A stretch of 64,000 nt of DNA from IMG/VR virus record IMGVR_UViG_3300031784_000006. One strand, written 5' to 3'. A program made the translations under genes and the position numbers. The notes below the pieces were generated by a model. That model was not told the origin of the DNA and did not search any database. It saw only the letters and a program-made list of their open reading frames with translations. Positions 17,033-19,341 of the stretch are shown here, piece after piece. Origin of the DNA: a virus. Lineage: Duplodnaviria > Caudoviricetes. Each line of letters begins with the position of its first letter. The stretch's first letter is position 1.

Positions 17033-19341
17033 GCAATCCCGTAAATACTAGCATTAGTAGACCTATCAAAACTTCCACTAGAAGAAGTTGCTGAGAATGT
17101 TGGAACTTTAGAACCTGCAGCAGCACTACCACCACCTTTCATTCCAGACGATTGTACTATTGGTGGTAGAGTTACAACATTTTGAGAACCATCTCTTGTC
17201 AATGGTTTTATTTGAGGAATATTTTTGGTTCGATATCCAAGTTTAGCTGCGTTCGAATCACTGTCAGTCATTGCAACTAATTTATCAATGAGAGAAGTTC
17301 CAAGACGATTTACTGTATTAACTGGAAGAACATACTCCCCAGGTTGAGCAAAAACAACTTGCCTATCTGCTGTTGCTCCACGAATATCCATTCCAGTATT
17401 CTCTTTAATCAGTCCACCACCCATACGCTGCACAGGTCTAGGACCCTTATAACCAGGAGCATTATAATATGCATTCGGTCCTGTCAATTGACTATATGAA
17501 GAAGTCCCTTCTGGGAATAGCATATCACTGATGACAGGAGCATTTAAAGCACCAACAAACCTACCACCAAGTCTGGCAGTTCCAGTGGCAAATGAACGAG
17601 CCATGGATGGTGTTTGTTGGGTTAATAATGGCATCAAAGATCTTGCTTTAGCACCAGTATATTTGCCACTCATGATACCTTCAGCAATTCTTAATCCCCT
17701 ATTTGCTTGACGCGCAGAAACAACTGTGGCACCTCTTAATGTTCTTGCCCCCTCAGGAACTAACATATTTAATCTGGGTCCTTGGCCAGGTAAAAGACCT
17801 TTAAATTTGCCGGCACCTCTATAAGTATCAGCAACCCAACCCTTTACACTACCATAAACTCCTTTACCAAGCATTCCCATTTGTTCTCTAAAACCGGTAG
17901 CACGAATAGATTCTGGTGCTCCGAATGATGTCCCATGCATAATTCTTTTAAGAGGAGCACCACGGAGACCTTTAGTTGTAGATTTTCTTCCAGATACTGG
18001 TGCTACTGCGTTAATAATTCTTTCGATTGGAGTTGCCAATCTTGTAACAACTCCACCAACCATTCCTCCAGTATTAAATAATCTACCAAATTTAGGTTGA
18101 TTAGCCCCAGAACCACCATAATACTTGTTTAAAGTTAAAAATGTATCTGCACCAACTGCATCTACAGTTCTCTTATTAATAACAACTTCGCCAGGTTGTG
18201 CGGCAATTAATTGCGTATCAGGACCAAATCCAGATATTCGTTGTCCTGTAGTATTGTCTATACCAGAATATCCATCAAGCACAGAACCACCACGAGCAGC
18301 ACCTTGAAGAAGACCATATGGTGTTGTTGCTCCCATATTACCAACACTAGGAACCTTATCGGTCATAGTATCAGTTCCTTGAGTGCCTAGACCCTTTCCA
18401 GTCTGTGCTCTTGCTTTATTCTCTGCTTGAACTCCTGCTGCCTTTCTTTGACCAGTGACTTCATTTGCAGCTGCTGCTAATCCAACCGCTGCGGCAGGAA
18501 CGGCAACCCAAGGATTAAGTAAAACTTTACTGAGACCTTTTATTGCACCAGCAATCTTAGGTATTGCACCAACTAGTTTGCCAGTTAAACCACCAACAAT
18601 TCCAAGTATTCCTCTTACAAATTTACCAAAGGGCGTGAAAAATAAAACAAAAGCACCAAGTAAAGATGGCCACCAATCCTTTAAAAATCTTTTTAGTGTC
18701 TTAATTTTATTTTGATTCTTTGGATCCTTAAACCAATTTACAAGTTGATTAAATGCCCTACCTAACAAAGTAAAGAAAATAAATCGGAATACTCTATCAA
18801 TGATACCCTGAAATGGAGAAATAAATTTCTTTGCGGCATCAGATACCGCTGCCATCCCTTTCTTAACAGTTTCTAACCCTTCCTCTCTTTTGGACCTCTT
18901 CTTCGCTTCATTATCTTTTCTTTCTTGGTCTGCAGTATCTTCTTTAAAATCTAAAAATGAAATTAATACTTTCTTAATAGAATCAAGAGGACCTTGAAGT
19001 GTTGCTAAATTTGCAGGTTGAATTTGTGAGGATTGAATACCACCTGCGGGTGCAATTAAAGGGGTTGATATTGGTTGTACTGATGGTTTTAAAAACTTAG
19101 TTGTTGCTATCTTATTTGCATTTATCTTTTGAGTCTTTGGTTTAAATCTACCCTTCTTTCCTCTTATTCTTTTTCTTTCATTTGCAAGCAGAGCAAGTTC
19201 TTCTGGTGGCAATTTTCTTGCACCAGAGACCATTGCTTCTCTAATAAGATTGAGATAAGTATCATAATCCAAGTCAAACGTATAATCAAGACCCAGTAGC
19301 CTTAAAATTCTTTCATCGATTTTTTCGGATACTGAGTTCAT
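17029..19341 (-). CDS. Tape-measure/hub-like tail protein with an embedded ADP-ribosyltransferase-like motif
   Basis: Coiled-coil plus hydrophobic helices; internal HGTS....SI...GF.....MLGKGVY.S......A..Y. Confidence 0.6.
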   Translation of the reverse strand: MNSVSEKIDERILRLLGLDYTFDLDYDTYLNLIREAMVSGARKLPPEELALLANERKRIRGKKGRFKPKTQKINANKIATTKFLKPSVQPISTPLIAPAGGIQSSQIQPANLATLQGPLDSIKKVLISFLDFKEDTADQERKDNEAKKRSKREEGLETVKKGMAAVSDAAKKFISPFQGIIDRVFRFIFFTLLGRAFNQLVNWFKDPKNQNKIKTLKRFLKDWWPSLLGAFVLFFTPFGKFVRGILGIVGGLTGKLVGAIPKIAGAIKGLSKVLLNPWVAVPAAAVGLAAAANEVTGQRKAAGVQAENKARAQTGKGLGTQGTDTMTDKVPSVGNMGATTPYGLLQGAARGGSVLDGYSGIDNTTGQRISGFGPDTQLIAAQPGEVVINKRTVDAVGADTFLTLNKYYGGSGANQPKFGRLFNTGGMVGGVVTRLATPIERIINAVAPVSGRKSTTKGLRGAPLKRIMHGTSFGAPESIRATGFREQMGMLGKGVYGSVKGWVADTYRGAGKFKGLLPGQGPRLNMLVPEGARTLRGATVVSARQANRGLRIAEGIMSGKYTGAKARSLMPLLTQQTPSMARSFATGTARLGGRFVGALNAPVISDMLFPEGTSSYSQLTGPNAYYNAPGYKGPRPVQRMGGGLIKENTGMDIRGATADRQVVFAQPGEYVLPVNTVNRLGTSLIDKLVAMTDSDSNAAKLGYRTKNIPQIKPLTRDGSQNVVTLPPIVQSSGMKGGGSAAAGSKVPTFSATSSSGSFDRSTNASIYGIA

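Follow-up and report, generated by a model that had tools for sequence, protein, structure and literature searches.

The central module of P0001, a 770-residue tape-measure-like protein of a T4-like cyanophage, adopts an ADP-ribosyltransferase (ART) fold and very probably belongs, as a divergent member, to the H-Y-[EDQ] branch of that superfamily. The protein is encoded in the 64,000-nucleotide stretch of IMG/VR record IMGVR_UViG_3300031784_000006 analysed here (the window), which is part of a roughly 210-kb metagenomic contig of a Kyanoviridae-type phage. The module forms a separate, unnamed family within the PARP/diphtheria-toxin clade, and sits in a slot between two conserved bodies of a protein from the tail-hub gene cluster. 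It keeps the residues of the signature that binds nicotinamide adenine dinucleotide (NAD), with Ala at the position of the catalytic Glu. We rate it about an even chance that the module is a tail-delivered, Glu-less mono-ADP-ribosyltransferase cargo, both the activity and the delivery being predictions.

A sequence-only reading of this DNA had noted between positions 17700 and 17960, in the protein next to gp51, a segment with a PARP/diphtheria-toxin-like (H-Y-x) signature. The segment, RIMHGTSFGAPESIRATGFREQMGMLGKGVYGSVKGWVADTY...GPRLNMLV, lies at residues 466–528 of P0001 (nucleotides 17758–17946), and the P0001 gene adjoins a gp51-like open reading frame (ORF) of 56 residues at 19348–19518. 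Among all six-frame ORFs of the window (35,358 residues), the pattern HG[ST]-x15-40-GxGxY-x10-Y has one match, compared to 0 matches in 200 residue shuffles, and a six-frame profile scan found no second copy of the module in the window. The assignment of the signature is now supported by sequence profiles, two structure models, five fold searches and language-model features, the last of which point weakly toward ART.

Single-sequence searches returned little. The module found no Pfam family at E ≤10, two of its homologues reaching E 0.38 on PARP (PF00644), and a phmmer search with P0001 gave 0 matches in the PDB. Profiles reached further. Profile A1, built from 43 module sequences, has PARP14 as its sole PDB match, which is weak (E 1.1) and aligned exactly on H...GxGxY...Y. 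Against 1.84 billion representative proteins, A1 gave 108 matches, and those to proteins bearing a Pfam PARP domain range from E 1e-26 to 1e-4. The 43 remote A1 matches touch PARP PF00644 (26), ART-PolyVal PF18760 (19), Exotox-A_cataly (13) and Tpt1 PF01885 (9). Two of these matches, P0176 (A1 E 1.9e-13) and P0192 (A1 E 3.2e-8), score 115.6 and 44.8 bits on Pfam PARP, of which the gathering cut-off is 26.7. Profile A3, built from 85 core sequences, has ARTs as 28 of its 30 PDB matches, with the H, GxGxY and Y residues aligned; the E values are 0.004 for PARP12, 0.0051 to 0.09 for exotoxin-A-like chains, 0.02 for PARP10 and 0.13 for diphtheria toxin. As a side observation, five of the remote matches (P0157, P0176, P0177, P0179 and P0184; 500–670 residues) contain as many as four partial PARP-type domains in tandem. 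Both P0157 and P0176 have four PF00644 stretches, at profile positions ~45–132 of 199, and one of the five proteins also has a weak NUMOD4 match (E 0.00078).

Structure prediction followed by Foldseek, which the sequence-only reading had proposed as a check, gave an ART-like fold; a non-ART fold, which would have refuted that reading, was not obtained. AlphaFold2 model 2 (m7299ce5dd23f, built on A3) has a mean predicted local distance difference test score (pLDDT) of 84.1 and a predicted template modelling score (pTM) of 0.79. The core has a pLDDT of 80–93 in model 1 and of 80–97 across both models. The elements of model 2 follow the ART-like order of strand, helix, short strand, strand, helix, strand, strand and helices. 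At the level of the fold, the models belong with the split beta-sheet core of ARTs, in which the NAD cleft runs between strand 1 (the H/R strand) and the GxGxY strand. Foldseek against the PDB returned PARPs, tankyrases, cholix or exotoxin A as all of the top 50 matches, with a best E of 0.016 at a probability of 0.98. The VIA search, which is independent of Foldseek, found 16 chains with Z ≥5, all of ART fold, including PARP13 (5.7), tankyrase 2 (5.7), PARP10 (5.6) and diphtheria toxin (5.3), on a scale where, by the tool's own notes, Z <8 can arise from common arrangements. The best VIA match of both models is the Tpt1/KptA-like chain 9ld3_A, with Z of 6.1 and 6.4. Pseudo-PARPs are also listed, namely TASOR at Z 3.7 and RCD1/SRO1 at Z 4.2–4.6, besides PARP13. 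Moreover, 26 of the 30 top matches in the Swiss-Prot AlphaFold library are PARPs or Tpt1, and the AlphaFold DB clusters together with Swiss-Prot gave PARP, Gig2, Tox-ART-HYD1 and Tpt1 entries. The fold searches with model 1 drew the same ART picture. Altogether, the case for the ART fold is carried by the purity of the hit lists and by the significant profile links, not by a single strong score.

HMMER aligns the signature residues of the module with those of known ARTs. His469 of strand 1 aligns with the His of PARP14, PARP12, PARP10 and exotoxin-A-like chains, and Tyr496 and Tyr507 align with the tyrosines of PARPs and exotoxin A. Among the 85 family members, position 469 is His in 32 and Thr in 52, and position 496 is Tyr in 82 and Phe in three. 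The sequence-only reading had found no evident catalytic Glu at ATVVS, and this stands: the column before TVVS is Ala538 in the window's domain, and across the family it contains 29 Ala, 52 Gln, three Glu and one Ser. The 'GKEVV' of the Glu-bearing members, which include P0203 and P0207, was aligned by HMMER to 'RGATVV'. The structural alignments to PARP1, PARP10 and PARP13 have end points that fit this position of Ala538, whose equivalence to the catalytic column is drawn from alignments and strand order, not from coordinate superposition. Read from the aligned sequence, the window's domain is H-Y-A. Glu530 was considered as a candidate for the catalytic Glu, as suggested by a conserved P-[QE] in A1, and was rejected. 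In the deeper alignment its column is mostly Gly (G or Q), and HMMER aligns the LVP(E/Q/G)G strand to the exotoxin-A-like 'VYVP(R/G)(S/T)A' strand that follows the second Tyr.

Strict covariation links positions 469 and 538. The 85 modules comprise 52 of the T..Q form, 28 of the H..A form and three of the H..E form, in addition to two singletons. At the level of aligned residues, this covariation looks like a set of alternative active-site designs rather than random decay. Within the window's own subfamily, none of the 30 members departs from H469, Y496, Y507 and RGATVVS.

The module resides in an exchangeable slot. A search of 5.8 billion proteins with residues 430–770 yielded 180 relatives, 120 of which were covered by BLASTP with the full protein. 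These 120 homologues show a three-piece pattern, in which residues 1–430 and 636–770 are conserved in nearly all, and residues ~432–636 are either conserved or replaced. A comparison of orthologues for the presence or absence of the domain, also named in the sequence-only reading, found 67 that have both flanks and other contents in place of the module, with slots of 100–540 residues. The slot contains a GH19 chitinase/lysozyme in 17 orthologues, Phage_lysozyme2 in five, a glucosaminidase in two, Hydrolase_2 in one and a trypsin-like peptidase in one or two. Of the 67 alternative slots, 26 have a Pfam family, nearly all of them peptidoglycan hydrolases, and 41 are unannotated. Together with the tail-hub gene context, this central slot with different enzymes in orthologues supports the earlier proposal of cargo in a tape-measure/hub-like protein.

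The similarity of the module does not follow that of its carriers. The module is 63–75% identical in proteins whose flanks fail to align at all: in P0028, encoded by the first large gene past gp26, an M23 peptidase precedes it, and in P0016 and in locus L003 it is found in the third large gene of the cluster. Conversely, P0011, P0012 and P0014 are 76–77% identical to P0001 overall, with a module only 37–40% identical, and near-identical carriers (76% identity) hold either the H..A or the T..Q form. This mismatch between module and flanks indicates that the module has been exchanged by recombination. A wall hydrolase is encoded in the same protein or in a neighbouring paralogue at the window and at three related loci examined. 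These separate enzymes lie beside the module or are fused with it, being a DPBB domain in P0002 and M23 domains in P0028 and L003. With a wall hydrolase at every locus examined, the ART-like module is an addition to wall degradation, not a replacement for it.

Two further elements are associated with the slot. The segment NAPVISDMLFPEGT..YSQLTGPNAYYNAPGYKGP at its C-terminal end is conserved in both module subfamilies and is matched alone, at profile positions ~140–204, by about 12 library proteins; it might be a junction or docking element of its own and no part of the ART domain. In addition, two related motifs of ~45 residues, ..AQPGEVVINKRTV.. and ..AQPGEYVLPVNTV.., bracket the slot. By BLASTP, they cross-match each other's positions in many homologues, and could be a structural socket or recombination sites for cargo exchange. 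Residues 361–429 are 63% identical to S-PM2 proteins and to 'endolysin'-annotated genes of other cyanophages.

The carrier protein matches phrog_35029 at E 5.6e-53 and the tape-measure phrog_37649 weakly (E 0.0022), and one homologue has a weak PF06791 TMP_2 match (E 0.024) in its module region. The whole protein found no Pfam family at E ≤1, and its self-BLAST gave no significant internal repeat. A Kyte-Doolittle scan (19-residue window, mean >1.4) located two hydrophobic segments within residues 227–292. From these features, and from the position of its gene in the tail-hub module and its composition, we infer that P0001 resembles a tape measure or is an ejected protein of the tail lumen. 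In its N-terminal third it is paralogous to residues 25–210 of the neighbouring P0002, which has an RlpA-type DPBB lytic transglycosylase domain (PF03330) at its C-terminus (residues 750–846). The tape-measure-like pair P0001/P0002 may supply the wall-degrading activity.

The P0001 gene is directly preceded by the gp51-like and gp26-like ORFs and followed by gp27-like/gp5-like hub genes (Table 1). The gp51-like/gp26-like pair is syntenic with the 'putative baseplate hub assembly catalyst' and 'baseplate hub subunit' of Synechococcus phage SynMITS9220M01 (Kyanoviridae). The order on the minus strand is a tube-like protein, gp26, gp51, P0001, P0002, a 439-residue 'tail protein' (phrog_350) and two gp5-like hub pieces. 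Upstream, the plus strand encodes the gp2 DNA end protector, the gp48 tube cap and the gp53 wedge subunit, after which the gp32 gene lies on the minus strand. In cultured cyanophages, a megablast search with the region matched no more than gp26/gp51 and gp4 pieces. Two more proteins are encoded downstream of the hub genes, at 6085–6726 and 8011–8577: one is a Mom-like protein of DNA modification (phrog_1384, E 4.6e-31), the other matches DNA endonuclease and 2OG-Fe(II) oxygenase phrogs.

Table 1. Features of P0001 and of neighbouring genes in the window; residue numbers are those of P0001.
Feature	Position	Strand	Basis
gp26-like baseplate hub subunit	19521..20240	-	PF12322 T4_baseplate E 9.3e-76; phrog_150 E 7e-80
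gp51-like ORF (baseplate hub assembly catalyst), 56 residues	19348..19518	-	ORF list and synteny
Whole P0001 gene, tape-measure-like / ejected tail-hub protein, 770 residues	17029..19341	-	ORF and translation
N-terminal body, residues 1-430, coiled-coil-like, basic, with hydrophobic helices	18052..19341	-	~q1-430 aligns in nearly all homologues (BLASTP)
Two hydrophobic Gly-rich segments, residues 227-263 and 272-292, candidate membrane-inserting helices	18466..18663	-	Kyte-Doolittle
Slot-bracketing motifs, residues 361-404 and 642-691	~18130-18261 and 17269-17418	-	Homologue cross-matches
Swappable central module, residues 432-636 (linker, ART-like core, junction element)	17434..18048	-	Module/flank alignment mismatch
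ART-fold core, residues 463-575	17617..17955	-	AlphaFold2 model m7299ce5dd23f; fold searches; profile matches
His469, first triad position (IMHGT, strand 1)	17935..17937	-	HMMER alignment
Tyr496, second triad position (GKGVYGS)	17854..17856	-	Aligned to PARP GKG-x-Y
Tyr507, second nicotinamide-stacking Tyr, 11 residues past Tyr496	17821..17823	-	Invariant, 85/85
Glu530 (LVPEG), not equivalent to the catalytic Glu	17752..17754	-	Strand alignment, column composition
Ala538, position of the catalytic Glu in H-Y-E ARTs (RG-A-TVVS)	17728..17730	-	Alignment column
Junction element, residues 600-636 (NAPVISDMLFPEGT..YSQLTGPNAYYNAPGYKGP)	17434..17544	-	Conserved in both module subfamilies
C-terminal body, residues 637-770	17032..17433	-	~q636-769 aligns 50-72% in orthologues whatever the cargo
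Second tape-measure-like protein P0002, paralogous, 928 residues	14246..17032	-	PF03330 DPBB_1 E 1.9e-15

We propose that P0001 consists of conserved N- and C-terminal bodies around an exchangeable enzyme slot, filled here by a divergent ART. Packaged in the virion, the protein would be expelled through the tube ahead of the DNA upon tail contraction. Wall-degrading domains of the same protein cluster would then open the peptidoglycan, and the hydrophobic helices of P0001 would engage the inner membrane and give the module access to the cytoplasm. There, the module would meet and use NAD+, and would mono-ADP-ribosylate a putative host macromolecule in the first moments of infection. The modification might serve host take-over or counter-defence, as with Alt of T4, a virion-delivered ART. 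That PARPs with H-Y-I/L/T/V/Y triads are active mono-ARTs agrees with such a role for a Glu-less domain.

Several observations weigh against this proposal. No Pfam ART model matches P0001 directly, and the link to ARTs is transitive, through profiles only. The fold scores are modest (Z ≤6.4; template modelling score ≤0.48), with no Foldseek match at E ≤0.001 in any library. The catalytic position has neither an acidic nor an amide residue, Ala538 being invariant in the window's subfamily. Moreover, the NAD-binding His is replaced by Thr in 52 of 85 members of the wider family, so that NAD-dependent transfer is not a family-wide function, unless the T..Q form binds NAD otherwise. The slot is otherwise filled mainly by wall hydrolases that act in the periplasm, which suggests a periplasmic destination for the module too, where NAD+ is not expected. 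Finally, a tblastn search of 50,697 deposited phage genomes found no match to the module and no cultured carrier.

These observations bear on the alternatives to different degrees. A fortuitous motif in a domain unrelated to ARTs would account for the missing direct Pfam match and for fold scores of which none is significant alone. Such a chance resemblance is highly improbable, however, and is effectively refuted by the profile and fold searches, as the transitive profile matches to bona fide PARP-domain proteins are highly significant, the five fold-search lists are almost purely ART, and the motif occurs only once in the window and never in shuffles. There is a real chance that the domain is inactive as a transferase, given that the Glu is absent and that most of the wider family has lost the His. 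On this account the module would be a true relative of the ART fold without catalytic activity, as are PARP13, PARP9 and the TASOR pseudo-PARP, and would serve as a structural plug or spacer in the tail tube or hub, or as a module binding NAD, ADP-ribose or a host factor. This main rival is rather unlikely, and is favoured by the following: Ala538 at the catalytic position, the majority subfamily (52 of 85) without His, pseudo-PARPs among the best structural matches (PARP13, Z 5.7), and no Pfam ART model at threshold. Against it, H469, Y496, Y507 and RGATVVS are invariant in 30 of 30 members despite the module moving between carriers, which points to selection on the pocket itself; the H..A / T..Q / H..E covariation looks like alternative working active sites rather than decay; and Glu-less H-Y-x PARPs are established as active mono-ARTs.

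Two further alternatives keep the domain active and change what it acts on. The module might be periplasmic, acting on peptidoglycan, a lipoprotein or another envelope component without cytoplasmic NAD+. Consistent with this are the alternative slot contents, of which 26 of 67 have a Pfam family and nearly all of these are peptidoglycan hydrolases, and the position of the slot, which lies on the C-terminal side of the hydrophobic helices, within the portion of a tape measure that general tape-measure biology leads one to expect to exit the tail first. We consider it improbable nonetheless, since the conserved residues are precisely those of the NAD-binding signature, we know of no wall-degrading enzyme with an ART fold, and the separate wall hydrolase at every locus examined makes the module an addition, not a substitute. 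Alternatively, the module might consume NAD+ or be directed to nucleic acids or phosphates rather than be a protein mono-ART, for example by Tpt1/KptA-like ADP-ribose transfer to an RNA/DNA phosphate, or by NAD+ breakdown that blunts NAD-dependent host defence. The best structural match is indeed the Tpt1-like 9ld3_A (Z 6.1 and 6.4), nine remote profile matches touch PF01885, and Tpt1 also functions without a catalytic Glu (H-H-h clade, PMC9503650). However, Tyr takes the place of His at the second triad position, sequence comparisons lead to PARP and exotoxin A and not to Tpt1, the N-terminal RNA-binding domain and the Arg/His tetrad of Tpt1 were not found, and the Z scores of Tpt1 and PARP lie within 1 unit and are thus tied. 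We therefore regard this alternative as similarly improbable, and retain the tail-delivered mono-ART as our proposal.

Among known systems, the module most resembles the Glu-less mono-ART PARPs (PARP10, PARP12, PARP14 and PARP16; PF00644) and the fish Gig2-like domains, with which it shares hhHG[ST]...GxGxY...x10-Y and the fold; Gig2/PARP entries in the AlphaFold DB are 31–36% identical to it over ~70 residues. Its third triad position is non-acidic, as in H-Y-I/L/T/Y PARPs. Of the features that define the H-Y-[EDQ] clade, the strand-1 His, the GxGxY Tyr and the second Tyr are present, and the catalytic Glu/Asp/Gln at the start of the penultimate strand is absent. Compared to PARPs, the module is much smaller (~115 residues), and neither it nor P0001 reaches the PF00644 gathering threshold (26.7 bits); with the third triad residue missing as well, we place it outside PF00644 and outside the canonical H-Y-E enzymes. 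Only ~8 residues separate the strand after Tyr507 from the last strand pair, whereas PARPs have a long acceptor/D-loop region here. The module is also embedded in a phage tail protein, without WWE, macro or zinc-finger partners. Lacking both the Glu and the long acceptor-site loop, it is no poly-ADP-ribose polymerase proper. Nor does it belong with the R-S-E ARTs, which have a strand-1 Arg, S-T-S and E/Q-x-E where the module has His, GVYGS and RGATVV; in the fold searches, R-S-E toxins come up only at low rank (Z 3–4). Tpt1/KptA is likewise set apart by its second-position His and winged-helix RNA-binding domain, where P0001 has Tyr and no PF01885 match.

The concept of delivery is already known for head-packaged ARTs and polyvalent proteins. 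Myoviruses are enriched in ARTs, which are frequently carried in the virion, and virion-delivered ARTs are common among these phages (PMC9503650). T4 Alt and the virion-packaged phage ARTs of the MuF/portal fusions (PMC9503650) embody the same concept of a late-made ART that is carried in a contractile-tailed particle and delivered at the start of infection. Alt, however, is of the R-S-E clade and head-packaged, whereas the module is of the H-Y-x clade and lies inside a tail-hub/tape-measure-like protein. The term 'tape measure' is absent from the text of the survey of viral NAD/ADP-ribose systems by Iyer et al. 2022 (PMC9503650), and in our searches of the literature no cyanophage tail protein was reported to contain an ART. 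According to a statement in the former survey that cites a 2017 survey (PMC5512222), ARTs are the commonest modifying enzymes in phage polyvalent proteins (PMC9503650). Polyvalent proteins with ART-PolyVal (PF18760; Iyer et al. 2017, PMC5512222) are multi-enzyme, virion-associated chains with exchangeable effector domains, to which the module carriers may be comparable. Relatives of the module join an M23 peptidase and an ART in one chain, and 19 of the 43 remote matches touch PF18760. P0001 itself has one recognisable enzyme domain and no direct PF18760 match, and its type of carrier is a T4-type tail-hub/tape-measure paralogue with one or two slots, whereas polyvalent proteins are giant and head-packaged.

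Enzymes within tail proteins offer a closer parallel in architecture. The tape-measure-fused virion RNA polymerase gp96 of Thermus phage P23-45 is proven to work in the host cytoplasm (PMC10770324). As in gp96 and the muralytic tape measures, the enzyme domain of P0001 lies inside a putative ruler protein of the tail; unlike gp96, P0001 has an ART-fold cargo, a short carrier (770 residues), tandem paralogues and a myovirus context. The evolved VgrG/Rhs type VI effectors with ART, such as TreX (PDB 8s2m), which is among the structural matches (Z 5.2), similarly fuse an ART to a part of a contractile injection machine. They differ in belonging to R-S-E or other clades, in having spike/Rhs carriers and in having immunity proteins, whereas P0001 is a predicted viral tube-lumen protein. 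A separate, weak structural match (Z 3.5) is to residues 1279–1625 of PDB 9k3a_B, from the pre-ejectosome of the Anabaena cyanopodophage A4. The report on that structure describes one ejection protein, gp28, with a transglycosylase, an M23 domain and a third alpha+beta domain (PMC12002296). The match may reflect an ART-like cargo carried by an ejection protein of a podophage, or may be noise.

A broader reading, possible and still doubtful, is that T4-like cyanophages use tandem tape-measure-like proteins for polymorphic effector delivery, comparable to the evolved VgrG proteins of type VI secretion. One of the cargoes would be an unrecognised ART family whose three configurations (H..A, T..Q and H..E) are chemically distinct enzymes, which phages exchange in an arms race with cyanobacterial defences and which enter the cytoplasm through the tail ahead of the DNA.

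T4-like cyanophages account for a large part of the mortality of marine Synechococcus and Prochlorococcus, yet very little is known of their take-over of the host in the first seconds of infection; to our knowledge, they lack the Alt of T4. If the module is indeed active and delivered by the tail, this ecologically important group of phages would possess an enzyme that modifies the host as a first strike, and virion-delivered ARTs would extend from head-packaged proteins to the inner protein of the tail. The module would also represent a Pfam-invisible ART family, in which the H..A / T..Q / H..E covariation would be a natural experiment on the rebuilding of an ART active site. Moreover, the exchangeable slot, with its wall hydrolases, protease and ART, would give a metagenomic handle on the evolution of host range and counter-defence.

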